From NCBI GenBank assembly GCA_021432655.1, contig MU271298.1:62104-95269 (forward strand): DNA of 33,166 nucleotides, read 5' to 3'. This DNA comes from Atractiella rhizophila. Taxonomy: Eukaryota. A program made the position numbers and the translations under genes. Positions 1-33,166 of this stretch are shown one piece after another; the first letter of the stretch is position 1, and each line of letters starts with the position of its first letter. The notes below the pieces were generated by a model. That model was not told where the DNA came from, searched no databases, and was given only the letters and a program-made list of their open reading frames with translations.

Positions 1-309
1 TGGCATGGTGTGAGACGATCTCACCATACCTGCTGTTACTGTCAAGCATCAAAAGGTACTTCTCATGGTCTCACAGGATCCTAACTGACATACAAGCCTC
101 AATGACAGCAACGATGCATGTGCAGAGCATGGCCTTGAAGGGTTGGATGATACAAGGTGTTTCTATTCCTGAATCACATTGGGCTGATTTGGAGGCACAG
201 ATGGGATGGAATAATTACATTGTTTCTACCTGGTATTGTATTGAGGTGTGCTGATCTCCATTATATTCGGGGTTCTGTTATTGTTCTCCATCAATTGATG
301 CTTTGGAAA

Positions 310-486
310 CAAAGGCACTGTGATGATAATGTGATATAATCATTAAAAAATAATGCATTACCTTTATCTTAAAGACAAGTTTTTTTTTTTGAATGTAATG
401 GCATTACGGTATACTGTGCCAAAAGAGCATTATTTTGCACTAAAAAAGTGATTATTGACATTATAATGGTAATGTGCTCAGCCCTG
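310..486. mobile_element. Possible right terminus of a hAT-like DNA transposon/MITE extending left of the window
   Basis: AT-rich stretch with recurring AATG/CATT(A) motifs ending in ...GTAATGTGCTCAGCCCTG (reverse complement CAGGGCTGAGCAC..., a hAT-like CAGGG start). The partner end is not visible. Confidence 0.25.
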
Positions 487-846
487 CACAAAGAGGCTGA
501 CAAATGATAACGGAGCAGAGAAAAGGTTAGGATTAGGATTCAAGAATAAAAGTGCCATTGACCTCAACAACTTAAGCTCTTTCGATTTCTTCGCCTTCAT
601 CTTTCGACAATTCACCAAGGAAGAGTAGGCGTCTTTCTGACAATGGACGAGCCTCGTACAGTATATTGCCCTCCTCCTTATCAGACTCCTTGAATTCCAT
701 CAGTTCCAAAGCAGAGTATCTCGAATCATCTCCGACTCCGTCGTTATGCTGTAATGTCGGGGCGAGGAGCTCAAATACTGGCGAGGACATATTGGTTTGT
801 ACCTATTCCAATTCGTCGGTGATCCCCATATCCGCTGATCTTCACG

Positions 847-925
847 CCCTGTCAAAAATGGATTGGTCACTTTTTGGCACTTTTGTCACTTGCTGGTCGG
901 AATTGGGCATTTTTGGGCATTTTTC
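847..925 (+). repeat. Left TIR plus subterminal repeats of the CACTA-type element
   Basis: CCCTGTCAAAA followed by TTGGTCAC / TTGGCAC / TTGTCAC / TTGGGCAT variants. Confidence 0.8.
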
Positions 926-1312
926 GCCGCTCCACCTCTCGGTCGCTTTCTCTCGGTTGAGGAACGTTGGTCGCCCCGAGGGTTTTTGCGCTCAATCAAT
1001 TCTGAGGAGATTTGCGCCGCATCACAAAAGTGGTCAACCTCTCGAACTGGAATATGCTTGAATGCAAAATGTAATAATGATTAACAATTCATCTTGAATA
1101 CAATTTAGGCTGATCCAGTGTCTATGAATGCAATGTGTCTGTCTCTGAAGCAAACAATAAAATAATATAAAAGATATCGGTACGTGGAAACTTGAAATGT
1201 GATCACACCTTCTGACATCAATACCCAATGTGTTTTCCTTTTAAGTAGCTTGAACGTATGTATGTGATGCTGGTGTTGCCATGTATAACATTAATAACAA
1301 TGAGTGAACATT

Positions 1313-1970
1313 CAAAAAAGCGGAGCAAAAAATACTCACCTTCATATATCCAAAAATACAATTTGCTATTACTTCACCATTATTCATCGTATTTTAGACG
1401 TAAGCAGCACGAATGGGAGACCTGAGATGTAGCTTTGACGACGTATAACGTGTATTGAGAATGAGCAAATATTTAAAAAAGCGGAGGACAAAATACGCAC
1501 CTCAAAGACATCAAACACGCAATTCCCAATTGCTTCACCATTATTCATCGTATTTTAGACGTAAGCGGCGCGAATGGGAGACCTGAGATGTAGCTTTGAC
1601 GACGTATAATGTGTATTGAGAATGAGCAAAAGATTTAAAAAAGCGGAGGATAAGATACGCACCTTCATATATGCCAAAGAACACAAGGTTGATAGGATTG
1701 AAAGGCAAACATTAGACATCGATATGGAATCACGTAAGCAGTCACCTGAATGGCAGACCTGAAAGGGAGAATCCAGTGACGTATAATGTGTATTGAGAAT
1801 GAAGCAAAGATTTGAAAAGGGAGGATAACAATACGCACCTTCATATATCCAAAAACACAATTTGCCACTACTTAACCAATATTCATCGTACCTTAGACAT
1901 AAGCACCACGAATCTAGACCTCCACATGCACCACTCTCGCGTATACTGTGTATTGGAATGAGCAAGATTT
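1313..1970. repeat. Degenerate tandem array, about four units of ~160-175 bp, inside the CACTA element
   Basis: Recurring blocks AAAAAAGCGGAG..ATAC(G/T)CACCT, ATTCATCGTATTTTAGACGTAAGC and GTGTATTGAGAATGAGCAAA at ~1313, 1475, 1637, 1813. Confidence 0.85.
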
Positions 1971-2822
1971 ACAATACAATCTATCATGAAGTTGGACGCA
2001 CCTGGTCATGATAACCAGAGCCAGAAAAGATATTACTCACCATCTGTTCATCAGTCAGTTCTAGAGAAGTAGCACGAAGCCACACCATATTGTCGCTCTG
2101 ATTACGTTAGTCTGTATTAGAATGATCACAGATTGAGGAAACTTAGTCTTATTAAGAGGGTTGAAATTTCAAAAAATTGTAATTTTCAAATAAATTGTAA
2201 AATGCAATAGGAATGTAGAAATACAGTCACTGAGCTTGTAGCCGCAAATTCTGTTCTTGCTGTGGTTGCTGTGGACTGAGGGAGAGCTGTTTGAAGTCAT
2301 GGAATTTTGAGGGGGAACATAAATTACGTGCGGCACTTTGTGGGAACGACATTCACCATCCACATGCCATCAAGTCCAACTACAACTAAGTCAGGGAGGC
2401 GTTGCAAGCCCCCCAATACCTATTCTCATGAGTACTATTCTCTCTGTTGTATGGTTACTAAAGTTTGACAGCTTCTCATGTCAAGAATATCCTCCTCTTC
2501 TATACAACTTTCGAGTATGTTGACGGTGGAGCTTCTAGCAGGGGCTTGAGAGCTAAATAGTAGTCCGTGCAGGGTGGTAGAGAGCATTGGCGAAGGCGTT
2601 TTGGTTGACGCTGGGTTGACGTTGTGGACACTACAGGGAGAACTACTGCACAACTACAGCCGGATGCTGCAAGGCTGCTATATCTTCCTTGATATCCACT
2701 CAATCGGCCTCAGAATCACTTTACAGACATCCAGGGAGCCTCAAATACCTATTAGGATATAGAAGATTATGTGTTACAATTTTTGAATTTCCGACTCTGA
2801 AAAAAGTCAAATTTTGAATTTC

Positions 2823-5798
2823 CTAACCCCCTCTATTGTGACTATTGACAATAGCTCCTCGATACTTGATCTGACGACTGACACGGACTGAATTGGGTTG
2901 ACATTGTGATTCTTTCCATAATGTGCGTACACTTTCACCATTCGGGAGTTGCAGTCGTACCCATTTGTGAACATAGCAGTCCCACTCCGCAACGTCATAT
3001 CCATTCTTCATTAGATATTGCTGAATTGCCTTTTTCTCATTGCCGTCTATCTTGCACCACTCTCTGGCAGGTAGGAGAGCCTTGTCCCCTGGAAGAGGGA
3101 GTCCTCCACATGGTAAGTTGTTGACTCGCTTGTTGTGTAGAAGAGATGGATCAATTGTGCGGAGGGCTTGACATTGGGCCTGCCGTATTGACTGTTGTGA
3201 GAGATTTTCATAGGGCTTCGAAGGTTGCTTGATACGAGAAGCAAGAATACCTATTGTTCGTTCCAGGGTCCACTGAGTGATATAGATAAAAGGTCCGAGG
3301 CGGCGAGCTTGTGGAGCATGGTGAAGCATCTTGTGAAGAGAGGGACGGCAAAAGTGAACCTGTTCAATATCATTCTGGTAATAAAGCTGCTCAAATTCTT
3401 CGACATATTCAATAATATGTTTCTCAGCTAAATCGAGCTCCACAGAGGAGATATCACGCTTTCGAAGAATCCGGATTGCAGAGACAATCTTGAGTTAATT
3501 TGTGTAGTATGGCTCTGGTACAACTCCTTCCAACAGTCCAGGCGCAACTCCATAGAAGTAAGTCTCCCATTCTTTTGCTTTATAGGCAGAAAACTTAATA
3601 TCAATATTTCGAAGATATTTATCCCATGAAGCTGGAAGATATGTCCGTGTTGCCTCAACACGTGTTCCATGTTCCTCCCAAATCCTGCCCCAAAGAACTT
3701 GCCAGGGAGAAAATCATGGTCGGCCATACCTTCAGGTAGTGGATTACCATCATCACCACGTTTTCGTTTCCCCTTCTTATGACTTGCTGCCTGCCAATCC
3801 GGCCGGACTGTACCACGCCATAAGCCGATGATGAGCTGAGGAAAGTTGAGGTTTGGATGATGCATCCCATCCACAACAAAGCAATAAGGAACACCTCCAC
3901 CTAGAGTAACAAGCTCAGAGAAGAGAGAATCGCGGACAATGCCGTATTCGGTTGATAACTCTTTCGCTCGAGTTTGATTTCCAGTGGCAGCAGCAGACAT
4001 GATATCGTTAAGGTGCTTTCGATACTGTGATGGAGACTCTCTTGGCAGGTTCCGAGGATCATAGTTGGGCCGTAGTGCTTCAGATTCACGATAGTCATCA
4101 GGACGATGAAGAGGACAGTAATAAGTTGAAGCGCCAGGTTTGTGCACTCCTATAGCTGTACATCCCTGAATGTGACAACCCCGTCGTCCATTATGCCCCA
4201 CTTCGCCAGCCAGTTCAGTTGCACATATGGTATCAAAAAGGCCTAGACCCAGGAATGGTCGTGAACGAAACCATGTCTTTGTTTGAGCATCAAATATTGG
4301 AAATCCAGTCTGTGACAGTTGTTTGAGCCGTTCGAATATGGGATAGAGATATGAATTGAGATCCCATGGTTTATTTGGACCTGGTATTGTGCAGAGAGGT
4401 ATGACAAACTGCTGAAGATAGCGAAGATGAGGAGGAAGATTATAGTCGATCATGATGACAAAGACTGCATCAGACGGTTTCTTGTTGGTGAATAATTGGG
4501 CTCCATCAACCGAGAGAAACACCATTGAATCTGATGAGCGAATGATGTTATCACGAGCTGCCTGGAGATAGTCTGAGCCACAATAAACATCATCAAACCG
4601 TCTGGGCAGATTGCCAGTTTGAGGGCATTGTTGCAGAAGCTCTTTTGTACGCCTGGCACGATGTTTGGATGATGAGGCTCCTTGTGGTGTTGACCAACGT
4701 GCTTGAATCGCCACTTCAAAGGGGACAATAAAGTATCTTTGCTTGGATCTCTTTGCTTCTCTTCCCCTGCACTTGAAGATATCATAGCGAGCAGCTCCAC
4801 ATTTTGGACAGTGTGTCTTTTCCTTTCGTGGACCGGTGAAAGCTACACAGGAGAGAGCAGGACACATATCAAAACCTTGAGGAATCAGTCGACTCTTCTT
4901 TTCAATTAATCGCTTGACACAAAAGAGGGAGAGAACAGTTTGGTTTGAGCGTGCTGAGATGATAGTGCGTAGATCCTTATACAGTTCATCAGAGGCTCGA
5001 CCATTACAGGCCATGAAAAGCTCGACAGAGAAGAGCTCGTCTTCGGATAGCGGTGTATAGTGGTACTTCTCAGAGTCTGGGATCATGCTGAACATTACAT
5101 CCTTCTCCCTGAGTTCCTTGAGCATTTCTCGATAGTGATGATCACTTGACAAGAAGTCTTCAAGATGATGTGCTATCACATATGTTTAGGTTATATTCAG
5201 ACTGTTTCAAAGTGGCAGCATTTCTCGATAGTGATGATCACTTGACAAGAAGTCTTCAAGATGATGTGCTATCACATATGTTTAGGTTATATTCAGACTG
5301 TTTCAAAGTGGCATACTAGTCAAGAGATTAGGATCTACCTCAGAACTGGCAAGTTCTTCTTCTTCCTCCTCACTGGAAGAGGAACTTGAGCTGCTGGAGG
5401 ATTCGTCCGCAGAACTTGGCTGAGGAGTATCTGTTATATAGGACCGAGGTTGGTCATTTCTAGGGGAAGCAGGACGCCCAACACTGACATCATCAATCTC
5501 CATCTGGTTTGGGCCATCTGACTATATACGTTCCCATTTACATAAATGCCCAAATATAGAAAATAATGCTGACATGACTTTCTCCATTACTATTAGAATC
5601 TTCTGTGTCATCCTGACTGTAGATCATATCGTCATCTAATGAAGTCTCCATCATAGGCCCTTTATCTTGCTGATCGACATGATGTTTTCGAAACGTATGA
5701 CGATGTACCCATTTCCCACCGTGGGAATTCTTCCTGCATCTATTACAAGTACACCATCGATAGTTCTTAGAAAGGCGCATTGGTCTACTCTCCATCAT
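2823..5798 (-). pseudogene. CACTA/EnSpm Tnp2-family DDE transposase, disrupted
   Basis: N-terminal CTCNRC motif; introns 5573-5522 and 5316-5269/5173. Motifs CPKCGAARY, SVDGAQLF, NLPPHLRY, IPGPNKP, VGHNGRRGC, DGMH and YITQWTLERTIG. A frameshift near 3705 switches to the homologous frame PWQVLWGRIWEEHG...YKAKEW; in-frame TAA at 3497-3495. Confidence 0.85.
5121..5313. repeat. Perfect 96-bp tandem duplication spanning an intron 3' end and exon start of the transposase
   Basis: 5121-5216 is identical to 5217-5312 (AGCATTTCTCGATAG...CAAAGTGGC). Confidence 0.95.
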
Positions 5799-6104
5799 AA
5801 TGGTCCTCTATCTCTGTTTCTGAGCTGTTACCGACAATATAACCAAATACATCCAACTAACTTCTCAGTTAAGTATATTCCACATAAACAATAACCTCTT
5901 TAAATCACATTTCTCTTTCTCAAACTGAAGCTGTAATGGTTTCTGAAGATTATCCATCAGATGATCAGGAAAGCGAGCATTCACAGGAGGATTTGGATTT
6001 TGCACTTGGAAATAGCAACGGGATAGAAGCTCCTTTCAGTGAGCGCGAAAGTAGTGTTGATTTTGCAGCTGGTCCGTTCTTTCTTGTTCTTGTTTCGCTG
6101 TGAA

Positions 6105-7826
6105 ATGGGTATTAAAGGCATTGATTTAGGTGTGCTGCCACCAAACTTCGACTTCCTCACTCGTTCAAGCAACATCTCATCGCGTACCCCAACCTCTCGA
6201 CTATCTACCCCATCCAGGGATTCACCAGAACCATCCCATCCTTCTCAACTCTGGAATCGTCATCTCAACCTCAACACTGTAGAGGGTAGAGGTCGTTCAC
6301 GCCTAGGCTCGCCGATATCGCCTCGCCATAATCTAGCCCTTTCAGAGCCCCCAAATCTTCGGCAAATCTTGGCCAGTGTCACGACAACTGATCTTCTTGC
6401 TTTCAGTCCTGTGTATCGACGAGCACATGACGAGAATATAGCTCTGCAGACCGAGATTAGGGTTCTCAGGTCCGTTCTCCCATCCGCACTTATTAGTACA
6501 CATTATGATGCATATGCAATGGGCATGTTAGATCACTATACGACAGCTTTAAAGATTACAATCGCACACCACCTCCAGCTCAGCCACTGCCTCATCCTCA
6601 TGAATCCTCCAGATCGTCATTTAGTCTCCCGGAACCATACCGACGCAGTTCTGATGCTACCGCGATTCCAAGATTCAACCGAGTCGATTTCCCCATGATA
6701 ACCTGCTGGACAAGTGCGGAATTCAAGGCTTGGAATGACGCTTACAAGAAGCTCGGAAAAGATGAGCGGAAAGGAACGACACAGGACTTCATTCAGGGTG
6801 AAGACGGCCAACCAATCTCACCTATCCAAACTGAGCAGATCAGGGAATGGATCGGTACAGCCTGGAAAGAGTGCTTCGGTGCGAAAGCGAACGATCAGCG
6901 GTTTCTTGGAAAGAACTACAGCCAAATAGACTCCACGTATACCAATCAACTCTTACACGCCTTCATCGAACGTTTCCCTCTCCTCGGCTATTGTGATGGT
7001 TATTTCAAAGCTCTCTATTTTCTCAATACTGCAAGCTATACTAGGAAACGGAGTATTGTACTTACGGAGAAGAAAGCGCAGATCAAGACTGAACTGAAGG
7101 ATTCCCAGCCCATCTTGAAGAATACCGGACGTCCCCTGGAAGTGAATTCCAAAGAGAGGAAGACAAGTAAAAAGCGCAAGGAATCAGGAGATGATGATAT
7201 TTATTTGAGGAAGAAAAAGAAAGCGACTGCTGCCGAAGATAGTCCCTCTATAAAAGTGTGAGGTCTTCATTTGAGAGAGAACGCAGCTGATTGGTTATGT
7301 AGAGCTGAGAATCTCGATGTCGAGACAAACGTCCCCTCCCCAGATTACACGAATCAGCAGCCTCAGCCTCCTCTCCAACCGTATACCTTCACCGAACCTC
7401 CCCTCCGCTCTCAAACGTGTGACTCCCAATCTGTCACTTCTCCATCCACATTCATTCCTCCTGGAACTGAGTGTACTGCGATTACTATGACAATGGAGGC
7501 GGCTGAACTTGTGCCAGGGGGATTGACCAATCGGGCGGGAAGTGGTGACGACGGTGTTCAGGAACCTATTAAGGATCTTGTGGACGATATTTCTACTGGC
7601 ACAGGGTTTGATGCAGGTAGTTACATCCCTCCCGCTGCAGCAGATCCATTGGCAGGTGCACGCTCTGTTGTTACCCGTTTGCGCTGATCTTACTTACGGT
7701 GCAGGTGCATCGTCCCTCCTCCTCCTCGCTAACAGTGCGTTCTCCGACCTACCCGCCGTCCTAATTCTCACCTTGCCCCAGCTGTTCACGCTTCAACCAG
7801 CGCTCAGCATCCCAGGCCAATCATAG
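6105..7826 (+). CDS. Second (accessory, ORF2-like) gene of the CACTA element, divergent from the transposase; multi-exon, ends uncertain
   Basis: Introns 6470-6531 and 7258-7302 join ORFs 6039, 6695 and 7271 in frame. The core RVDFPMITCW..W...FIQGEDG...RFPLLGYCDGYFKA resembles, from recall, a basidiomycete transposon-associated helical protein family. Lys-rich NLS-like tract and Pro/Ser-rich tail. Confidence 0.55.
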
Positions 7827-8199
7827 GACAGACAACTTTTGAAACAGAAGGTTGTCTTTTCGCACTTCTTTTGCCTTGACTGATATTTGCTTATAGCGTC
7901 ACACACTCACGCTTCTCAGAAAACTGCATGGCCCAGCTCTCGTCTCCAGCCTGATATTCCTGCCGGTTCTCCGCTCAGTACGTCTGATGCTGCTCTGCAG
8001 AGCAGACAAGTCGGATATATTTCAACTGCAGGTCTGTCTGTCATCTCGTCAAATTAGCTGCTCTCCATGTAAGATAGAACATTCCACTCGAATCCCAACC
8101 AGCGAGCAACCACCTCCTGCCAGCCTCACCTCCCTAACCCAATTGCTCAATCTACCTCCCGGATCGATCCCACCTCCTACCCTCCCTTCTGTTGCGATT

Positions 8200-8897
8200 C
8201 CAAGAGTCCAGAAACCCACTGATGCGACCGCGATGTGTGGTAGAAGTGTGGGTGTGAGCAAAATTGGAAGTGATGGCAGAAGTGTGGGTGCGATTGCGAG
8301 TGGAGGCGGTGGCGGAGGTGTAGATACGACGAATGGTGCAGGTTCTGGACTTGGAACGGGAGGACGTGGTGAACGTGAAAGAGGGAAGAGAGCAGTGGAT
8401 GGCGGTGAAGATGTTTCTAGAGGCAGCGGTGTGTGTTCACATTCATCCTGAAATGGATCTGATGGCAGTGAATAGTCTCGAGGAGCATGAGGGAGATTAG
8501 TGGAAAGTCAGCCTTTTTCAGAATGGCTTTTACAGCGCAGTACCTGATAGCAGGATCAGATTAGCTTACGAGAATGCTCGTCATGCTTCGTGGGCAGCTA
8601 CGAACCCTGGAAAGTCAGCAAAAGAGGCACGCAGAGCTATCGGAGCAGAGTACTCTTTGCTAGGAGACCGGAGGCAGCAGGCAAGTCGATTTTCGCCTGC
8701 GCTCGAAACAGAACATGACACTGACCATCATACGTATTTATGCACGGCAGTTCTGGCGCAACGTTGGTAAAGGGCTGGAGCAAGTACCTCTGGACATTGT
8801 CTTCCCTTACCCGCCAGCTCTTGCTTAGAATTGACAGTAAGGACTTATCAGTACTTCCACTCTCGCTGATGCGGATTCCAAAGCAGGCACCATTCAT
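8200..8897 (-). CDS. Possible third internal gene (fragment) with proline-rich C-terminal part, starting near the right end
   Basis: ORF 8637-8897, splice-like signals near 8545-8620 and a Pro-rich minus-strand reading (SPRPPVPSPEPAPF..PPPPPP) down to ~8200. Confidence 0.3.
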
Positions 8898-9074
8898 GGT
8901 CTCACTTTCTACATATGTTCGTGCCTACATTTTACGGATCTCTCTTTTTATAATCTATGCATTGATTTGGATTAATCGTGTAAATACAAGACTTGGCTAA
9001 TCGCAACTAATTTTGACTAATACTGGCTGAGTAAAATTACGTTTGAGGAAAGCTAGAAAGCGACTAAGGAGTGA

Positions 9075-9246
9075 CTGAAAGTGGCCAAACGACGGGATTC
9101 GTAGGTTTCTGCTTTCTGAAAGTGACCAGAAGATTTGCCAAAGTGTACATTTTTTTGGCCACATTGGTCACGATTGGTCACCTTTTTGGTTAGCGACCGA
9201 AAACGACCAAAGTTGGCCAAAAGTGACCAAACAGCTTTTGACAGGG
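9075..9246 (-). repeat. Right TIR plus subterminal repeats of the CACTA-type element
   Basis: Repeated AAAGTG(A/G)CCA and TTGGTCAC motifs in both orientations, ending TTTTGACAGGG. Confidence 0.8.
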
Positions 9247-9446
9247 AGCTTCACGAGGGAAGACCTTTTGGAGAGCGTCAAGGTTTGGCTTTCTGTTCGT
9301 CCGCCCGACCGAGATCACATGATTGGCTTCGGACTGGCCGGCTTTCCTCCCGTTGGGATCGCTTAACGAGCGATGGGGTGTCCATCGACCGGGTGGCATC
9401 TCGGAGAGAAGTGGTTGGGTTCTTGCTTTCCTCTCGTCGGAATCGC

Positions 9447-10383
9447 TTAACGGCCGTGAAGGAGGAGGAAGGGAGAGGATGGAAAACTGCCTTTGCGGAG
9501 TGTTGATGACAGGGTGTGCCCATTGACCGGCTTGATCCTCAGGAAGAAGTGGTTGGGTGTGGACAGGTTCAGCTGGTGATATGTTTCATTGTCCAACTCG
9601 GGAAAAGGGTGATAAAACAGAGTACCTGGCAAAAGAGAGGGAGCGTTCTGAAACGCCGCTGATTTCGACCTATTCAATGGATGCAGTCTTGTCCGCATCA
9701 CCGCCTCTTCCTGGTTGGGATAAGGTTTTTGTCCCTGCCTAGTCTTCTTACGGCTCAGAGACCCTGTTGTCTCAAGGTGACCAGTCCTAGTCTGAACTGA
9801 TGGAAGTGACTCCACAGCTGTTAATCCGAGCATTGAACACTGGGCATGGGTCAAGATTCCTGGATCCCGCCTCTGTTTCTCCAAACGCTCCTCCTCAACG
9901 AAGGTTCCCTGTTGCGCTCTGGGTGAATAAATTTGCTGACGAAGTCCCACGAGCTCTCGACGTTGTTTCGTGAATTGAACCCATTGGTCGCAATACGCCT
10001 GGTGGGCCTGCTGTTCCATCAGGACGGAACCGATGTCCTTCTGTGCGTACCTCTATGTCACTGTGTAGTCCTTCCCAGACGCATCCGTCGTCCTGGTTCT
10101 TGCAGCTGAACACAACTTGAATTTGTTGACGTTACAAGAGAGATAAACGAACCTGAATCTCCTGCGCACCGTTGCGTGAGCGGGCATGTTCACTCTTAAT
10201 GTGGTCACCGCAATGCGAAGGATCGTCTTTGGAACGTGGACAGATCTGCCATGGGGAGTTCAGTGTACACCTCTTCTTGCTGCATGGATTCGCAGCTAGT
10301 TTAGGCTTGGAGAATGACCTTTTAGCTAAGAAGATGCTTTCGCAAGAGAGCTCTCTCAGTCGCACTCTTGACGGATGAGGCAA
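9447..10383 (-). CDS. Multi-exon hypothetical gene with a Cys/His-rich, TRAF-zinc-finger-like segment
   Basis: VFSCKNQDDGCVWEGLHSDIE resembles the V-x-C-x-N-x3-GC-x-W-x-G pattern; upstream Cys/His-rich ORF 10132-10383 and a downstream coiled-coil-like stretch. Exon structure unresolved. Confidence 0.35.
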
Positions 10384-10867
10384 CGGGGTTGGAGCCGAAC
10401 TATTTGCTGCTGAACTTTGTGGTTGGAAGGGAATGGAGAGTTGAGACGATTGTGACTTGACCTTTTAAGAAACGCAAAGAATGGACGAGAGCGGTGCGGT
10501 GTTCAGGTGGCACCTTGTGTTGAATGAATCCAATTGACTCGCATGAATGGAGGGTATCGGCGGGCAAGAAGGAAGGTGTATTCTCTGCCAGCGGAGGACG
10601 TAATGGAAATTGAACGAGATTCGCTCTCTCGCGCGAGTCGTTTGCGGGACGGAGCGCGGCCAGCCAGGGCTACTTCACAGAAGAAAGCACCACGGGAATG
10701 CAATTGTTGAAGTTGAAACCTGAAAACCGTTGGCATCTGCGTCATCGGCTTTGGTTCTTCTTCTGTCTGCAATGGTTTGAATATCGCACAAGCAGAAGCA
10801 ATTTAGCAGTATGCAGAGCTGTTCCAACTGCTCTTTGAAGCATTCCTAGAGTATGTGGAGTGCTGCG

Positions 10868-10997
10868 GCGCGAGAGTAGAGTTCTACTGGTAGCGTTCTA
10901 TCGCGCGAGAACAGAGTCTCAACTTGGAGCAGTTCTATCGCGCGAGAGCAGAGTTCTCTGCTTGGTAGGATTCTATCGCGCGAGAGCAAAGTTCTGT
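10868..10997. repeat. Short tandem array, about four 35-39-bp units with core TTCTATCGCGCGAGAGCAGAG
   Basis: Direct reading: GCGCGAGA recurs four times with short variable linkers. Confidence 0.85.
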
Positions 10998-11468
10998 CGA
11001 CGATCTCGCGTCCCGTCTCAATCCCCGCCTGCTTCACTCACACTGCTCGCCCGTTTCTCGCACTCTTCAAGAAGTTATGTACGATTCCACTCAGTCGGTG
11101 AATAACTTAAAACTCATCAGGTCATTCGACCTTGACTCGTGCTTAACTTGGAGGGACGTGAGAAACAAGCAATGGAGCCATCACAAGAAAGGTGGGAACC
11201 AAGCCGGGGGTTCCAACTCCTGATAAAGAAGCTCCAATCCCGCTGTTTCCGAACCATTGAAAAACCAAAAAATTCAAAACAGATCTGCTCAATCATATCA
11301 ATGACACTCTAACGCTCTAAACTTGGACTGCCATTCGAGACATGTTGGATGAGGGATGTTGCCGGACCACATCGTCAATACAATATCATCCAGAATCGAG
11401 AACCACTACTGTCCAGCATAAAAAGGACGGGTCATAATAGGTGAAAAATTGCCCCTGTCAATACCCGC

Positions 11469-13910: not shown

Positions 13911-15510
13911 TCAAGCCCTCTTTATCCCGACTACCCCGATCCACCTATCTACCGCATCACAGCTCTCAGTGGTCTCGCCTTTCATGCGCTCTAGTTCATT
14001 GCGGAGTGCTCGTTCGAGTGATTCTAGGCGAGATGGAGAGGTGCCGAGATGCTTTTGGAAAGGAAGCGATAGGGAATGAAAGTGAAGGAGGATGCTCTCC
14101 CTCATTGACGCAGCATTAGTCTCGCTCATTTGGGCTCCTTCGTCCTGTTCGAACCCTGATGAGCTGCTTGTAGAACCTGGAGTAAGTGTCGGTGGTGAAG
14201 AGCAGAGTGCTAAGGGTTGTGCGTATGGCGTTATAACGAAAGTTACAGTGAATGGAAAACGAACGAATGTCAACTATCCGAACTGCTCGTCACGTCAGTC
14301 TTCCTTCTAGTTGATTTTATTGAAACAATGGGAACATACCTGTGACCTCACGAATTCCCTTCAACAGCTCCACCTGATTTTGAAGTTTACGAGCCGTATT
14401 GCCGTGGCCGCTAATGGTGGAATGCAATACCTTCACAAGTTCGTTGAATTCGCTTAAGGACGTGTACAGGGTGGAAGACGGTGAAAAGAGGCCAGCGGGC
14501 TCCATAACGTGCAGAATTCCCCCATCGCGAAGCGAAAAAGCGCATTCTTCGAGCAGTTTTCCATACTCAGATATCTGAAAGATCACTCAAAGTCACGTCA
14601 GATGATGAGGAGTGATGTCGACCCACTCCCGAAGCTAGGTCTCTGCCCGTTATGATCAGTCACGTTCCTCCTAGTGCCGAAGGACAAACGCACCTAATGT
14701 AGATGAAATCAAAGGAATCCTGCTCGGATTTAGATGACATTCAGCATCCCCTCCGAGTTATGATCAGACGGAAACAAATCTCTTTGACTCACTGCTGGAT
14801 AATCCAAACCTAGCGATACGTCGTCGATCAAGAAGTGGCAGTTTGGAGGAACTTCTGTCGGGTAACTAGGTACGAGGTCGAAACTGCACATTCCAACAGA
14901 ACAGAATCAGCAAGTGCTCTGGGTGCGAGTTGTCTCAAAAGTGTAAGGGAATGAGAATGTGGAAGCCTACGCTGTCACTCGGGCGAGTGGGAACTCATCA
15001 GCCAGCTCGATAGCCACACACCCTGTACCACAACCTAGCCATTCGCATTAGCCACTCAACAGTCTAAAAATGGAGCAAATTTAGTACCAACGTCGAGAGC
15101 ACCTTTTGGGCCTTTCAGCGTCGTCGCTCCTATCTCGGGATCAATAACAAGGAGAGCATTAAGCCTGATCTCCAACATCCAATTGCTGCCATCTGTCAGC
15201 CACAGCAGTTGAGAAAGCACATAAATCTAATAAGGAAAGAATGCATGCTTAAACGAGATTTTATTGCCTAAGTCGAGTTTAGTTTACGACTAGGAAGTGG
15301 GAAGCAACAAACCTCGTGCAATATTTTTTGTCTGGCAACTCAGACTGTCACTCGAGCTGGATAGAGCCAGAAGAAAACAAACCGTCTATATTCGCCTTCA
15401 TCACAACTTCAAAGACCCCAAGTCACTTTTGTTAACAGAAGAAAGTGAGCACAAACGGGTAGACATAAGAAGCTCCTCCTTTCGCGTGGTAAGTTCTTCC
15501 AGCCTCATTT
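13911..15510 (-). CDS. LaeA-like class I SAM-dependent methyltransferase (many short exons; 5' end not identified; may be a pseudogene)
   Basis: Spliced reading gives GRTYHAKGGASYVYP|CDEGEYRR (exon 15510-15457), ALDVG|CGTG-CVAIELADEFP (intron 15087-15035), FDLVPSYPTEVPPNCHFLIDDV, DSFDFIYIR, LLEECAFSLRDGGILHVME and C-terminal LRNELE...WIGVVGIKRA. Confidence 0.78.
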
Positions 15511-15539
15511 CTGTAATATTGAGCAGTATTACTCAAAGT

Positions 15540-17795
15540 CGTGCTCGGAATCATTGTCTTGGTTCTCCTCCCTCAAGCCCCACTCGCATCGCATCCGCTC
15601 GTCCCACGGCGTCGTCACGCAAGCGATTGGCATCGGCACTGTCAAAGTGTTAACAAAAATCAAAGGAGTAGAAAGAGAAATTGAGATCACTGACACTCTC
15701 TATGACCCTGAAATCGACTGTGCCCTCCTCTCCACCGACAAGTTAAACACCCACGGCTTCGACATTGTGTTCTCGGCGAACAGGCAAGAGAAGGTGGTGA
15801 AGGGTGATGGTGCGGTGGTCGCTGAAATCGTTGCTGAAGGTGGACTGTGAAGATTGGATGCGTCAGTAATCATGAATGAAAGTACAAGCTCAAAACTCAC
15901 GAGCGCCGCAAAGCCGGCCTCTTCACATGTCTGGCACTGCCATTTAGGGCACATCAGGAGTGGGAGCCCCAAGCTGTTGCAAGAAAAGGGAATGGTCAGA
16001 GGACTAGAGATAGGAGATGAGCATCACCACTCACCGTGCGTGCACCGGATGCCTCCTTGGTCAACAACGCAAACTCCCATTCCCCTCCGGCTCCGCCGAA
16101 CGCACAAAGGAGAAGCTCGAATTGATCCACACCGATGTATGGGTCCTGCGCCCGTCAAATCACTCGGAGGATCTGAATACTGGCTCAGCTTCACGGACGA
16201 CGCAACGAGAAGAAAGTGGATTTACTTACTCAAGTATAAATCCAATGTCTTCTCCATGTTCAAGGAATTCAAAGCGAAAGTTGAACTCGAAACTGGCCTG
16301 AAGATCAAAAGAATGAGATCAGACAACAGTGGCGAATATACAAGGAACGAGTTCAAGACATACCTCAAATCCCACGGCATCAAACACAGGCACACAGCTG
16401 CCTACACACCTCAGCAGAATGGCGTTGCCGAACGCCTCAACCTAACAATCGCCGCCCTCATTCGCTCAACGCTACACACGTCGGACCTCCCCAAGAAGTT
16501 GTGAGGAGAACTCGCCATGGCCGCTATCCAAATCATCAACCGGCGCCCCTACCTCTGTGAGACTCTACTGTAAAAAGCGAGTTCCTTTAGCTCGACTAGA
16601 GCGAGAACTAAGAGGCTCAATCAATAAATGAGAGCTTAAACGAAAAGGAGAGACAGGAACCAGCTTATGCTAGCCACACTGAAGTGTAGGGCCTCTTATC
16701 AAGCTATTTGGTCTCAGAATAAAGACAATGGATCTTACAGGGGCGCTTCTACGGCCCGGGGGACTTACCTCGATTCTTACCGCACTTTCTGCTGTGACTG
16801 CGAAGTAAGGTGATGAGGAATAAGATGAATTTACATGAACAAGTGAGGCCTCTTTTAGAGGCCAATGAATCGGATAAAAGATCAGACAGCATCGCAGGAA
16901 CCCACAATACATGAGTAGATAGAAATATAGAATAATCGGAAAGCATGGAACGAAGAGGAAGCTGAAGGGAATCGAACGAGGCTCACCAGGGAATCGACGG
17001 ATCTTGCCTTCCAGTTTCTGGATAAGGCTAAGATACCATGCAGTTATCTTCCCTTCTTCTCCCGATCGATTGTACGCGCTTGGAGAGGTGTAGAGAGACG
17101 GGGGAGTTGGGAGGTATACAGTGGTCAATGTGACTTCCAAGTTAGGCAGGAGCCGCTTCCAGAATAGGAAGGTATTGCCGCATGTGAGCGGGTTGACCGT
17201 TGTATCTCACAACCTCCGCACTTGAAGGAAAGACTCCGTTCGAAGCCTGGACAGGAAAGATGCCGTCAGTGGATCACTTGCGAGTGTTGGGATGCAAGAC
17301 TCACAGTCTGATCCCTCCTGAGCCAAACCGACAGAAGCTTGATGTGCGCTCGATGGAGGGGAGGCTGGTGGGTTATGATTGGGAGAGCAAAACGTATAGG
17401 ATCTATAATCCCAAGAACGGATCAGTAACCAAGCACCTACATGTTCAATTCGACAAAACGTACCCCACAACACTCCTACAGCCTATGAAGTCCAAACGAG
17501 TGAACCAGCAGATCCCCCTGTTCCCGAAACAGAGTCAGCTCCAGTCGTAACAGGAAAACAACCGAATGAGGGGGAGAAACTTACCGAAGTGCCATCGAAA
17601 GCGAAACCAGAACCGCCAGCGCCTCGAGAATGCCTACAGCGCACACGGCGGATCCCCACCTGCAGAAGCTCAGAAAGAAAGCAGACCTAAGTACTTTGGT
17701 GACTCACCATTGTAAGATGCAGTAGCCCACATCACAGTAGCCTCCCACAACCTCACTCCGACTTATGAAGAGGTTATCACCGGTCCGAACGCCAC
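15540..17795 (+). mobile_element. Degenerate internal fragment of a Ty1/Copia LTR retrotransposon (protease C-part, GAG-pre-integrase, integrase); no LTRs or RT
   Basis: AIGIGTV, WHCHLGH, CTGCLLGQQRKLPF, LELIHTDV, FTDDATR, RSDNSGEY, TPQQNGVAERLN, LRVLGC and PTYEEVITGP. Stops at 15848-15850 and 16502-16504 plus several frameshifts. Confidence 0.9.
16556..17211. mobile_element. Solo LTR (656 bp) inserted in the Copia integrase
   Basis: Ends TGTGAGA...TCTCACA; 5-bp TSD ACCTC at 16551-16555 and 17212-17216; removal rejoins INRRP|TSALEGKTPFEAW (with a 1-nt slip). Confidence 0.9.
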
Positions 17796-26133: not shown

Positions 26134-27720
26134 TTATCTGTGTAAAAAATCAGACCAAACAAGAAGTGTCTGATAGGCTATGGAGGAGAAAGCACTATTC
26201 CTAAGACCAATGATAGCATCTAAGAGAGAGGAGTTGGGAATAGAGGGAAGAGGCACTTTGGAAAAGAAAGAGAGATCCGTGAAGGGAGAACTAGCAGAAG
26301 AAAAGAAACCTAAGGATGAAATCAAACAGCTAACATGACCGCGAGAAAAAGGGAGACCACAAGAGCAAGGGCGGTTGAACCCGAAACGTCCCACCCTCCA
26401 CTTGATGACGAGCCTCCGCAAGGCATCATCAGGAATAAGGAGAATCCTGTCCACGAGAGAAGCCGTCCGCCGGAGAGGTGAGATGACGGAACCTAGAGTG
26501 CCAACAAGCTCAGATGAGCTCAGGAGGCGAAGCCATTCGCGACGAAGGAATGCCTGAAGTGTGAGAACGTAACCGTTGACCTCCTCGTTGGCCTGAGCAT
26601 TGAGAAAGCGAGCAAACAGTTCGCAAGACTGGATTTGTGGCACGATATCTGAGATAGTGGGAGCGGTTGGCCAGGGGGACACAACGAGGGGGAGGGCTGG
26701 GTTGAAGCGGGAAAGGGAGCGGAGGTGAGCTGTGAGACCAGCACCAAGCTGGCGGAAGCGCTCGCGAGGGGGAAGAAGGCCTGTGGCGGAGGATGCGAGT
26801 TTCCAGCGGTCAGTGGATACCCCGGCTATCCAGGAGACTGCGAGTTTGAAGTGCTGGGAGGCCGCCAGCATTCCGGGAGAGGAGGAGCGTCGACGCTCGT
26901 CGCAAACAATCCAGTAGTGAAAGAGTCCGTCCCCCATAGTCTGAAATGGGACGAACGAAGGTGCGGTAAATGACCAAGGGGACTAGTTCGTTCCAACTAT
27001 TCCCAACCACCTGGAGGCTCCCCAGGAAGCGGTCTTGCTTGTCCGACTTCTCCAAAAGCCAGGCCTCGAAGTCAATCCCGTTAGGACCCCGAGACATGCC
27101 GAGATACTTTGCGCTGCTGACCTGCTGAATTGGAGTGCCGTTGATACAAAGAGTGACGGGGAAGGGGGCAACAGCTTTACATTTGGGATATTGAGCTTCA
27201 TCCCGTTCTGATGAGACCACTTGCTAACTGTATCGAGCTGATGCTAGCCTTCATCGACAGTTTTGGGGATGCAGACAATGTCGTCGGCGAAGGAGGGAGC
27301 AGAGACAAGGGAAGAAGTATTTGGCGGGAGAGGAGAGGGCGACTGGGAGCTTGAGGGTGATGGCTGGGAGGCGAGGAGAGGAGAGGCAAGTGAGCGAGGG
27401 AGGAGCGTTAAGGAGGCAGACAAGTGGGTCAATGAAGAGATCAAAGAGCATGGGAATGATCGGACCACCCTGTGGGTAGCCGCGATGAATGGCAATGGGA
27501 AGTTGGCGCTCGCCGTTGACTACGATTGTTGCCATAGCATTATGAGTGCAAAGTTGCCAGACGAGCTCGCGTATAGCTGGTGGAGCACCTCGAGACTTGA
27601 AGTTGGCGTCGGCAATGTCGTGTCGAACTGACAGAAAGGCACGTTCGAAGTCCAGGAAGATCGCAATAATCCTCTCCCCCCCCTTCTTTATCCTCTGTTG
27701 TTGGCTCCTTGGGAGGATCC
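26134..27720 (-). mobile_element. 5'-truncated non-LTR retrotransposon (LINE): reverse transcriptase plus C-terminal Cys/His motif, frameshifted
   Basis: IFLDFERAF, GYPQGG..PMLFDLFIDPL, FADD, KYLG, YRTFVRP..DYG and WRVGRFGFNRPCSCG...RGHVSC across four overlapping ORFs; (GTA)n-like tract just after the stop. Confidence 0.88.
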
Positions 27721-29732
27721 GGTATCGGTATCGACAAGGAAGCTGATTCATTATGGCACAGCTTTGAGTTTGCACGAGCATTGCACGAGGTGACGTGGTT
27801 TTCACGAATTCAACCCAAGATCGATGGTTGATGGACTGCAGAACGACCACCTCTTCCTTTGATCTATTGCCATATTTCTGTTGTTACCATCAGCATATGC
27901 GGCTGTAACGATAAGGGACAAGGGATAAGTTCGAAATCAAGCTGTTCAGGATTCCTAATCATTAATCTTGCTTGTTGCCACAATTATTACATGACTGTAG
28001 GACAGAGGGAGAGGGTAGAGATCAGCCACTTTACGATGGATGGCGTGGTTTGTGCTTTATGGTTGGATTGACCGCTCTGATGCTGATCTATGCAGAAACC
28101 GATCGTAAATGAAATGGATGAGACGATGACTATTCAGATAGTCGACATCGTGAAAAAGGTGTCCGATTCTCGACCACAGACCAATGATTTCGATGTAAGT
28201 TTACTCGATTTCCAGCTTGTGGAGCTAATCCCTGCCTCAAGCTCTCTAGAGAAGTACGAATCAACATCGAAAACACTTATCCGGCCGACTCGTGGACTGT
28301 CATAATAGGCAGAGAATATGCCGTTTCTCATGGAGGCGCGTCTTCTCAGTAAAGTTATCCGATTGCTTATCTGCGTGCTCCCTGTAGCACAAGGACGAAC
28401 TCGTTTGCTTTGCGAGTACAAAGGAAAGATTTTCGTGAGATGCTTCATCCCATCTCCTCCACAATCTGACGAGTCGGCACTTGCATTTCAGGCAGTGCAT
28501 AGACAACCGAAAACATGATGATCAACTTGGATTGTTTCAGTAACTCAACTTCTTGGTCAATGTTTCTGATCAAGAAGGATCTCTTGATCCTTGAAATTTA
28601 GTCGACAATTAGAAAGAAGTCGTAAGCCTTGCACCAAATCAGATTGAGGGAGAATGAGGGAACCCAACAGAAGAATGGGATATCTCCCACTTCTTGCAGT
28701 GCTCCTTCCTGCCACAGCGTCTTTCAACACCGCCCAGACCGTTCCTTAGTCTCGAATCTAATCTTCGATGATGCTTGAAATAAAGAAATGCAGCGACTAA
28801 AGTAACAAATTCAGCGCTTGGGAGCGCGAAGAAGGCGAAAATGTTTCTTCTGTCGAAGGCTGGCAATAACATGGAGCTCATATCGCTTGCGATGAAAATG
28901 CAATGAAAACGAAGTTGAACTAAGCTTGGTAGTCTTGAGAAATGAGCCCTGTGTCTCTACTTTGGTGATTGCGAAGTGAGAACGAATCGTCGCTCTCAGG
29001 CTACATTCAACCGTGCTACTTGTTCCAGCGTTGTTTACTTCATCCCTCCACAAGCTAAAGCCCTTGCGCGTCCTCTCCTTCACCCTTCACCAGGGCGATA
29101 CTACTACTCCCTCCCTCATGCATACGTACCAACATGTGAACACTCCGTACCTAGGTTCGTACTCGCGCTAATTCAAGTGCTCCAGCAATCTGACGATTTC
29201 ACTTGGCCGAGAGCCTGCAGAACAGAAGAATTTAGACTGTCTTTGGACATTTGCCCCTTGTCCCTTGTCCCTGTAGGATTCAGAAATTTTCTAGTCGTGC
29301 CAGATATAGGGTTGCTTCTATCTGCAAGCAAACTTCAAGTCATTTAGCAACACGCAACAATTCAAACCTAGTGAAACGTACCCATCGTTGACTCTTCAGC
29401 GACACCTTACTCCCCTCTTATTTTCTTCCAATCAATCAAATATCCACTCATGATCAGATCATCCCACACTGCGACGGCATTGGTTGCTGTGAAATTTATC
29501 AATAAAACTAATCACGGGTATGTAAAAAGCAAAGACGCAAAGCTCCTACACAGTAGCAAAGCATACTTAGTTTAATTCACCACAGCGCTCGCACTGGCTG
29601 ACACTAAAACATTCACCCAGAAGAACAAGGGCTTGAAAACTTAGAATCACTCTTAAAAACCGACTAGATTTTAAAACGACCTGCCAACAGAACGGTAGTC
29701 AATCGAAGAATAAGAAGCTTTGGATTACAAAA

Positions 29733-30135: not shown

Positions 30136-30723
30136 CTGGTGGCTAGGATTACACCCATCACCTTCCTCCTCCTCCAGACCACATTTTCACCCCTCCTGCA
30201 CTCAAATTTCGCTCAATTTCGATGATCAAGACAGATCTGTGATCCTCAGACCTTCCTTTACCACCTTAGAAGGTGTCTGCTTACTCAGGAATCAAAAAAT
30301 ATCGAAATCTATCACCTTACCACCCATCTCCTGCTTCAAAACGCACTTTGCCACCCTGGACTCAAACTTTGACGAATTTGGACGTTATAGGGCTTATTTT
30401 GATCGTGAAACACTGCGCTACAACTTTACTAGGAACCACTTTGGTCACAATAAGCGAAAATTTCGAGATAGCCACTCCATCACCTCCTTCACACCCCCAA
30501 AACGCATTTTTCGACTTTTTGAAGTCAGATCTGGTCTGATCTGGACAATTTTATCGCCATTGAATTCACAATAGGCTATTCTACTACCCTACAACAGATC
30601 ACCTTGATCAGAAGAGTCAAAATTTCGAAATTTGCCACCATCACATCATCATCACATCAGCCCCTATTACCCTTTCTGCATCACATCAGGGGATCTTAGG
30701 ACTCAACCACAGACTCTAGGAGG

Positions 30724-33166
30724 ATGTTTGGGATGGAAATGGCTCTTAATGGGTTGGAATTTGCTGGACTGAACAGTCTTGCTGCAGCAAATGATGTCAC
30801 TATGCCTCAAGCAAGCCTTGAGTGGATAGCAGACACTGGTGCAACTTCCCACATGTCTCCCCATCGCCATTGGTTCAGAACCTATCAGAAGAAGGTCATC
30901 CCTATCAGGGTAGCAAGTGGAGAAGTGATTTGGAGTGCTGGGATTGGGAGCTTGATCTTTGAAGCCAAGTTGGGGGAGAAGAAGACCACCACCATCACCA
31001 TCTCAGATGTCCTACATGTCCCCAAGCTCTGGAACAACCTCCTGTCAGTCTTCAGGCTCACCATCTACAAGGGAATGAGGGTCTCCATCAAGCACAACAA
31101 GGTTCTCTTCTTCCAGGGTCAAAAACTCTGCCTTACTGCTACTGTGGACTACAAGAATGGAAGCATGGCTGGGATACTTGATGGGAACACCCTTCCTGCT
31201 CCAGAATTTGCTGGAAATGCTTCTACACTGCCGATGGATGCCTCTCTGTGGCACAGAAGACTTGGACATCTTAATTATGAGGACATCAAGCGTCTGAAGA
31301 GGAAGGAACTTGTGAATGGGATGATTTTGGACCTGGAGGATGATCCAGACCCTATTTGCGAGCCATGCCTAGCTGGGAAGCAGCATAGGGTCTTCAACAA
31401 GTCAGCAGAGACCAAGGAGAAGGAAGTATTGGGTAGGATCAGCTCAGACCTGCATGGACCTCTTCCAGTCACTTCCAGAGAAGGATATCGATATTGGGTC
31501 ACCTTTATTGACGAAGCATCAAATCATTGCACAATTGCCTTCCTCAAGAAGAAATCAGAGGCCCCAGAACTCTTCAAGACCTTCAAGAATTGGGTAGAGA
31601 ATGTCACTGGAAAGAAGATCAAGAAGTTTAGAGAGGACAAAGAAGGCGCTTATTCCTCCAAAGAATTCGATCAATACCTCAAGGCCTGTGGTATCCAGCG
31701 CGAACAGACAATCAGGAACTCTCCTCACCAGAACGGCAGGGCAGAACGAGCCAATAGGACGATTCAGGAGACTATGGTTGCCATGTTTGAAGAATCTGGG
31801 CTTCCACTCTTTCTCTGGCCATCTATTGCTTCAGCGGTCGTCCACATTCGCAACAGATCTCCCTCAGCTTCGATCAACCATGCTATTCCCCACACAAAAC
31901 TCACTGGACTTACTCCAACCATCTCAAGATTCAGAATCATTGGATGCACTGCCTACGTTCAAGTTCAGAAGGATGAAAGGCCACACAGCTTAGGATCTCA
32001 TACTCGAAAATGCGCATTTATAGGCTATTCCCTTGCAGCGAAAGGGTAGGAGTTCTGGGATCCTGTTGGAAAGAAGGTCTACACTCGAGATGTTGCCAGA
32101 TTTGATGAGAGAGAGATGCTCTGCAAGGTCAGAAAGGAGAAGATTATGTTGGAAGAGCCACAAGGACCACTTGATGAGTGGAAGGAGCGTCAGGATCAGG
32201 TGGGAGATAGACAGAATAGTGCTCCAGCCGCTCCTCCAGCCAAGATTTCACTAGACGACGATGAAGAAGAAGAAGATGCATGGATTCAACAGCCGGGAGC
32301 ACCTCCTACACCTCGGGAACAACCCAGACCGCTTGGAATACAGTCTCCAAATCGATTTCAGCCCCTTCAGGTAGAAGAAGAAGAAGAAGAAGAAAGAGAG
32401 CCGTCTCCGGACCCACTACAGCTTGTGCCTGAACGCCCTAGGACACCACCACCTCGTCAGTACACCATGCAGAGAGATCCTTGGACAGGAGTTCACATGC
32501 CTAGATTCTCAGAGTCTCCAGACCCACTCCAGATCCACCCAACAACACCAGATCGACCTCCTCCAGCAGCTTCAACACCTCCCCCTGTCACCAGGCCTTC
32601 AAGAATTTATTCTACGAGTAGAGGACACCCTGTCGACAGATTTAGGACCCCAGAAGCGCCTCAAAGCAACGACGAAGGGTCAACAGACGAGCTTGGGATG
32701 TTGGTAAAGGAATGTGACATCCTCACTGAGCCAGAGGCAATGGAATATGGCTATATGCTTGTCACAGAGCATGCCATGAGTGCAGCAACAGGAGTAGAGG
32801 TCCCTCAGTCATATTCAAGAGCGATGGCAAGCCCTAATGCGAAGGAATGGCATGAAGCGACAGTGAAGGAGATTCAATCTCACTTGGACAACAAGAGTTG
32901 GATTCTGGTCAAACCGCCTAAAGGAGCAAAAATCGTTGGTTCTCGATGGGTGTTTGCGGTTAAGAAGAAGTCGGATGGTTCTATTGAGCGCTTCAAGGCC
33001 AGATTCGTCATCAAGGGGTTCTCTCAACGCCCTGGATTCGACTACTTTGATACTTTTGCATCTACGGTCAAATGGACGACACTTAGGACCATTCTTTCGC
33101 TCGCTTGTGTCTTGGACATGGAGTTGGAGTCAGTGGATATCTCTACGGCATTCCTTAAACGGCGAT
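30724..33166 (+). pseudogene. Ty1/Copia pol (protease, GAG-pre-integrase, integrase, start of RT), runs off the window
   Basis: WIADTGATSHM, LWHRRLGH, CEPCLAGKQ, SDLHGP, SPHQNGRAERAN. In-frame TAG at 32047-32049 (likely TGG); the same frame continues to SRWVFAVKKKSDGSIERFKARFVIKGFSQRPG and VDISTAFL. Extra A near 33157. Confidence 0.93.

Follow-up and report, generated by a model that had tools for sequence, protein, structure and literature searches.

We analyzed a stretch of 33,166 nucleotides of contig MU271298.1 of Atractiella rhizophila, hereafter called the window, which carries a transposon copy of 8,400 bp at positions 847-9246. The copy is bounded by two terminal inverted repeats (TIRs) of 39 nt each, one at 847-885 (plus strand) and the other at 9208-9246 (minus strand), which are 79% complementary and lie 8,322 nt apart. 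Both arms open with CCCTGTCAAAA, continue with five unlike nucleotides and then share the block TTGGTCACTTTT; the right arm ends in ...TTTTGACAGGG. The termini of the element read CCCTG..CAGGG, that is 5'-CC..GG-3', and are not of the CA..TG form. Between the arms lie the gene of a Tnp2-type transposase on the minus strand and a second, divergent gene on the plus strand, and a short direct repeat adjoins each end of the element. An original prediction, made from the bare sequence, had described the locus as a CACTA-type transposon with a Tnp2-type transposase and CCCTG ends: its TIRs were recovered at the same positions and its transposase matched the family PF02992 above the cut-off.

The left copy of the flanking repeat (838-846) reads ATCTTCACG and the right copy (9247-9255) reads AGCTTCACG. 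Each copy is flush with an element end and the two are identical at eight of nine positions, as had been predicted; they differ by a G at 9248, where the left copy and the element-free site described below present a T. Random pairs of positions in the window reached a match of at least 8/9 with a frequency of 1.4e-4, and the last seven flank bases were identical by chance with a frequency of 8e-5 (2,000,000 random position pairs in each case). The sequence CTTCACG (840-846 in the left copy) is not rare in the window (6 matches observed for 4 expected), so what makes the flank repeat significant is that it sits at each of the two ends. No direct repeat of 2-3 bp adjoins the ends, since the neighboring 2-mers are CG and AG and the 3-mers ACG and AGC; the absence of such a short target-site duplication had also been predicted. 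The TIRs present no outward extension (CG on the left versus CT on the reverse-complemented right).

Short words are repeated just inside both ends. The left subterminal region (847-1000) contains TGGTCAC at 864, TGGTCG at 894 and 968, and TGGGCATTTTT at 904 and 914, while the right one (9100-9207) contains TGGTCAC/GTGACCA words at 9122, 9165 and 9175 as well as TTGGCCA words. All five TGGTCAC words of the element sit at most 17 nt from its left end or at most 125 nt from its right end. Judging from the sequence, these subterminal words are probable transposase-binding sites. A copy of the end word with a single mismatch at 11453 was set aside, as it presents neither a partner nor a similar context. 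Six metagenome loci matching the end pattern (19 fixed bases) were likewise attributed to chance: they show no likeness beyond the pattern, no inverted partner and no Tnp2 relative.

Within the transposase gene, residues 222-336 of the open reading frame (ORF) at 3428-5185 (minus strand) match PF02992 (Transposase_21, "tnp2") with 41 bits for a cut-off of 28.6 (E = 1.6e-10). PF02992 was the sole Pfam family returned for the transposase, even at E up to 10. The core of the enzyme (3797-5044, minus strand) contains this match, zinc-finger cysteines and the motifs SVDGAQL, FD, GC..C and DGMH. A second conserved block (2865-3704, minus strand) contains the motif KAKEW and an in-frame stop codon at 3495-3497, and matches a DUF4218-like family weakly (PF13960; 19 bits, below the cut-off of 27). 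Seven relatives were aligned by tblastn to both blocks, with 33-36% identity over 5044-3797 and 32-40% over 3704-2865 in a different frame, and the 92 nt separating the two blocks probably hold a short intron. Upstream, the frame at 5538-5798 (minus strand), with an ATG at 5798, a zinc-finger-like motif (C-x-C-x2-C ... H) and no Pfam match, is the probable first exon. The 5' part of the gene also contains a perfect tandem duplication of 96 bp (5121-5312), which apparently copies the end of an intron together with the 17 codons that open the following exon; this duplication looks recent relative to the rest of the copy. The motifs SVDGAQL, FD, GC-x4-C, DGMH and KAKEW all align with near-invariant columns of the relatives, although the cysteine spacing is four here versus C(2)C in the accessible part of Kojima 2025 (PMC12730594).

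The second gene (6509-7687, plus strand) matched no Pfam family. The Atlas clusters closest to it consist of hypothetical proteins from basidiomycetes (score 0.94, low recognition), and the gene is interrupted by a stop codon at 7259-7261. Because each of the two genes contains a stop codon, this copy is unable to move on its own: it is decayed and no longer self-mobile. No other transposase family, including those of the Mutator type, was detected among the 28 ORFs of at least 80 amino acids in 838-9255.

An exhaustive HMMER search for relatives of the transposase returned 1902 proteins at E ≤ 1e-3, 247 of them at E ≤ 1e-30. The best match is 37% identical, and identity among the top full-length relatives is 33-38%. 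Twenty relatives were looked up. The named ones are from Agaricomycetes (Sparassis, Botryobasidium, Pholiota, Trametes, Peniophora, Hymenopellis, Rhodofomes, Pleurotus and Candolleomyces) and are annotated as "Transposase family Tnp2 protein" or as hypothetical; four others are short A. rhizophila sequences on four contigs, 52-65% identical to the gene. Related loci are represented by the protein accessions KAH8929422/KAH8929423, KAH8930726, KAH8922014 and KAH8923395, and the Agaricomycete proteins, such as those of Sparassis crispa, Botryobasidium botryosum and Trametes cinnabarina, share about 35% identity. When 30 of the 150 listed relatives were scanned against Pfam, 28 matched PF02992 at E ≤ 1e-3 (17 of them above the cut-off) and two matched nothing. 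Neither these 30 relatives at E ≤ 1e-3 nor the transposase itself at E up to 10 matched a Plavaka or a KDZ model, the presence of a Plavaka model in the Pfam set being assumed. A word-index protein search yielded one short Atractiella fragment only, and protein-guided scans of prokaryote genome contigs and of viral contigs found no relative of the transposase.

We then compared the predicted structure of one relative with known structures. The AlphaFold model of this protein (P0006; 1019 amino acids, built from a 44-row alignment) presents a pLDDT of 83.6 and a pTM of 0.81. It has 43 matches in the PDB at E ≤ 1e-3, and the matches listed to rank 43 are all RAG1 or amphioxus RAG1-like proteins, aligned over about 660-715 columns. 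HzTransib ranks next after the RAG1 chains (E from 5e-3 to 5e-2). Sequence identity to RAG1 and Transib is just 9-12%, and a sequence-profile search of the PDB sequences returned nothing meaningful (best E = 0.55). RAG1, ProtoRAG and Transib systems make 5-bp target duplications. Together with the Pfam matches and the annotated relatives, the model indicates that the enzyme family is Tnp2 with a RAG1/Transib-like fold, which corresponds to the CMCT clade of Kojima 2025 (PMC12730594). This clade of RAG1-fold transposases comprises EnSpm/CACTA, Mirage, Chapaev, Transib and Plavaka.

The search for an empty site, which had been proposed along with the original prediction, was conducted in the Logan contigs of two public runs (X1 and X2), both from one sample. 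These runs contain about half of the words sampled from 300-9800, and their contigs were placed on positions 1-11000 at 85% likeness (12 of 236 loose ends listed). One X2 contig links position 824 to position 9249, skipping 8,424 bases, with TCAT in between. In two X1 contigs, the first eight letters are loose and read CCGCTGAT; they equal positions 832-839 of the window and directly precede 9249. The element-free site reads ...CCGCTGAT-CTTCACG-AGGG: CTTCACG is present once, and it is preceded by AT in both the X1 and the X2 forms. A 31-mer assembly is unable to make such a join from a repeat of 7-9 bases, and reads of the empty site must therefore exist. Because the empty site is seen, the insertion and its long duplication are genuine, as the prediction had proposed: the element was truly inserted and duplicated at least 7 bp of its target (CTTCACG). 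Whether it represents a paralogue or the other haplotype, the empty site also defines what was inserted: CCCTG...CAGGG, the bases AG and a single CTTCACG. This excludes a duplication of 2-3 bp for this copy. That the element landed exactly at the junction of a pre-existing tandem 9-mer would be a far-fetched alternative.

The reading that we consider reasonably probable is that 847-9246 is a decayed cut-and-paste Tnp2 element with complete ends, whose target duplication was most likely 9 bp long and later underwent a T>G change in one copy, and whose target stagger is unlike that of the described relatives. By analogy with its family, the transposase would bind words of the TTGGTCAC type, which are concentrated near the two ends, and excise the element at its CCCTG...CAGGG termini. 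The ends would then be joined to the target through staggered cleavage, and gap repair would leave a direct duplication. At this target, the cuts would have yielded at least 7 and most likely 9 duplicated base pairs. Since 7-9 bp is well outside the 2-5 bp of the clade, the stagger of target cleavage would differ from that of the described relatives. The insertion was presumably made by the transposase of the element's own family, and the long duplication may be a trait of its lineage; this view, also put forward in the original prediction, rests on one insertion.

The length of the duplication can be read in two ways. The most likely target is the 9-mer ATCTTCACG, its right copy having later changed from T to G at 9248. 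The original prediction had also raised the possibility of a 7-bp duplication, CTTCACG, with two extra bases. In that case the element and the mechanism would be the same, and the AG at 9247-9248 would either form the true terminus of an asymmetric right end or have been brought or filled in during integration. CTTCACG is indeed the only exactly repeated part of the flanks, the empty site is equally consistent with seven bases plus two and with nine bases plus one change, and 7-bp duplications are known for fungal elements of other superfamilies, namely Kyakuja and hAT7, in the accessible part of the survey (PMC12730594). Three observations favor nine. The first of the two extra bases, A, also stands at the corresponding place of the target in both forms of the empty site; the TIRs do not continue beyond the element ends; and the stop codons at 3495-3497 and 7259-7261 show that the copy has accumulated point changes, so that a single change in 18 bp is, by our rough judgment, not unlikely. 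We consider the 7-bp version unlikely on these grounds.

Several points weigh against the favored reading of a Tnp2 element with a 9-bp stagger. The two copies of the duplication differ at one base, and seven base pairs plus two extra bases fit the data equally well. A single insertion with its flanks was examined. The empty-site contigs all come from one sample and may represent paralogues rather than alleles of the other haplotype; upstream, the X2 contig carries TCAT in place of positions 825-839 of the window. The fold evidence comes from the relative P0006, which is about 35-39% identical, and not from the protein of the window, and the catalytic residues were assigned from conservation in the alignment and not from superposition. 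Finally, the CC..GG termini and the length of the duplication both depart from the norm of the clade, which would also be expected if the ends belonged to another superfamily.

Two marks of EnSpm elements, repeated subterminal words and a gene that accompanies that of the transposase, are both present here. The strict signature of EnSpm/CACTA, that is CACTA or CAC..GTG termini with a 3-bp duplication, is absent. In the accessible part of the survey by Kojima 2025, the termini of the CMCT clade are mostly CA..TG and its duplications are 2-5 bp long, while fungal EnSpm elements present CAC..GTG termini and 3-bp duplications (PMC12730594). The element shares the enzyme of the CMCT clade and departs from it in both its termini and the length of its duplication. 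The "CACTA-type" label of the original prediction holds for the transposase family, and it does not extend to the termini (CAC..GTG or CA..TG) or to the target duplication of 2-5 bp (PMC12730594). Our literature search returned nothing joining EnSpm with target duplications of 9 bp and nothing relevant on Atractiella transposons.

The closest parallels, taken here from the accessible parts of two sources, each share some of the properties of the element. The EnSpm elements of Pucciniales (EnSpm-1_PGr) resemble it by their host in Pucciniomycotina, their Tnp2/EnSpm-like transposase, their large size and their inverted ends (PMC12730594). The consensus of the Puccinia element presents TTTGGTC/TTTGGCC words near its start, and words of the TTGGTC/TTGGCC type are found near the ends here, a likeness that is short and soft (PMC12730594). 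In contrast, the Pucciniales elements combine CAC..GTG termini with a 3-bp duplication versus CCCTG..CAGGG and 7-9 bp here (PMC12730594). The animal TRC elements (SmTRC1 and those of Aedes and Tribolium) likewise possess a Transposase_21 domain, their inverted ends open with CCC as in this element, and the end of the Aedes TRC, CCCAGTCAAC, resembles CCCTGTCAA of this copy (DeMarco et al. 2006, PMC1636069). However, these elements inhabit animals and make 2-bp duplications, unlike this fungal element, and fungal proteins are just moderately similar to SmTRC1 (PMC1636069). For a Mirage-like or animal TRC assignment, the CCC ends are thus present and the 2-bp duplication is not (CG versus AG, and the empty site).

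Plavaka elements belong to the same broad clade and also inhabit basidiomycetes (PMC12730594). The PlavakaA consensus starts with TGTCGGAAA, which is like positions 4-12 of the end described here, TGTCAAAAA, although this likeness is again short and soft (PMC12730594). The three extra bases CCC/GGG belong to the inserted DNA, as the empty site indicates, and the termini and duplication lengths differ: PlavakaA presents TGT..ACA termini with 2-bp duplications and PlavakaB presents CATCA..TGATG with 2-3 bp (PMC12730594). Among the KDZ elements, Kyakuja makes duplications of 7 bp and Zisupton and Dileera of 8 bp in the accessible part of the same source (PMC12730594); the element does not group with them, since no KDZ model matched its protein or the 30 scanned relatives.

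The departure of both termini and duplication length from the clade raises the question of whether the ends belong to the Tnp2 gene at all. Mutator-like elements make duplications of about 9 bp, which is typical of them. The ends and the duplication could belong to another superfamily (Mutator-like with 9 bp, or P-, hAT7- or Kyakuja-like with 7 bp). The Tnp2 gene would then be a passenger or stem from an old nested insertion, and a transposase encoded elsewhere would have moved the element in trans. The length of the duplication is compatible with Mutator, and contig depth, when summed, varies along the element, although depth does not equal copy number. Against this, the transposase found here is Tnp2, with none of the Mutator type and no second transposase family among the ORFs listed above, and no nested boundary was found around the Tnp2 gene. 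In addition, the TGGTCAC words are confined to the element ends, as expected of binding sites, and short ends with repeated subterminal words are unlike the long ends of Mutator elements. Similar CCC-initial ends are also known for animal Transposase_21 elements (PMC1636069), even if the termini and the duplication length found here do fail the pattern of the CMCT clade (PMC12730594). Taken together, we regard foreign ends as improbable.

The search for a nested element around the Tnp2 gene examined 206 inverted 12-mer pairs with at most two mismatches, none of them continuing past 18 nt. The most suggestive is a weak pair, an inverted 12-mer with two mismatches (2368-2381 and 8262-8275) that starts with CATCA, the terminal motif of PlavakaB, and is bordered by GC on either side. 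No other inner candidate carries a terminal motif that is known. Depth shows no break at the CATCA pair (2368 and 8275), which is probably due to chance.

It is also improbable that the family normally makes duplications of 2-3 bp and that this copy results from an aberrant integration or from the capture of an excised element during repair of a staggered break: although only one insertion was examined, the clade is reported at 2-5 bp (PMC12730594) and irregular flanks do occur in the superfamily (only 7 of 14 SmTRC1 copies present the expected 2-bp repeat; PMC1636069), the intact ends are flush with the duplication on both sides, as in ordinary transposition, and the target presents no filler or deletion beyond the single base difference.

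The surroundings of the favored Tnp2 element present further features. The flanks (1-846 and 9256-10600) are multi-copy, being covered by several diverged contigs with internal skips, which indicates that the element landed within another repeat. With regard to a possible host gene spanning the site, the open frames running across both flanks look low-complexity. Over positions 1-11000, the differences between the window and the related X1 contigs comprise C>T at 136 and G>A at 117 places versus A>G at 92 and T>C at 74. This excess of C>T and G>A may reflect the deamination of methylated cytosines or a process resembling repeat-induced point mutation (RIP) in repeats.

The summed X1 contig depth over the transposase part is about 700-1600 versus about 500-735 for error-free single contigs; depth does not equal copy number, and its closeness to the level of single contigs hints at a low copy number of the element. 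At about 2203-2936, the summed X1 depth is several-fold above that of the neighboring bins and six contigs diverge after 2614; the segment may represent either a short repeat of its own or sequence common to many other elements. A tandem array with a 161-bp unit (1299-1913; 3.7 copies, 75% matches) also lies inside the element. In X2 contigs, this satellite continues into telomeric CCCTAA/TTAGGG units (loose ends at positions 1414 and 1626), which indicates that it also adjoins chromosome ends. The whole window is rich in transposons: Copia-type pieces (integrase, GAG-pre-integrase and RVT_2) are found at 15449-16504 and 30700-33165, and a reverse transcriptase piece (RVT_1) at 27251-27883.

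The length of the target duplication is a near-diagnostic character for superfamilies of DNA transposons and reflects the spacing of the two active-site attacks on the target. We tentatively suggest, as a possibility somewhat short of probable, that a basidiomycete branch of RAG1-fold Tnp2 transposases combines CCCTG ends with a 9-nt target stagger. If true, this stagger would extend the known 2-5 bp range of the clade. It would also imply that the RAG1-like architecture does not dictate duplication length and that this length is no safe diagnostic of the superfamily, and automated classifiers could misfile such Tnp2 elements with 7-9-bp duplications as Mutator-like. This branch would then offer a natural comparison for changes in the geometry of target capture within the RAG1/Transib/CACTA lineage.

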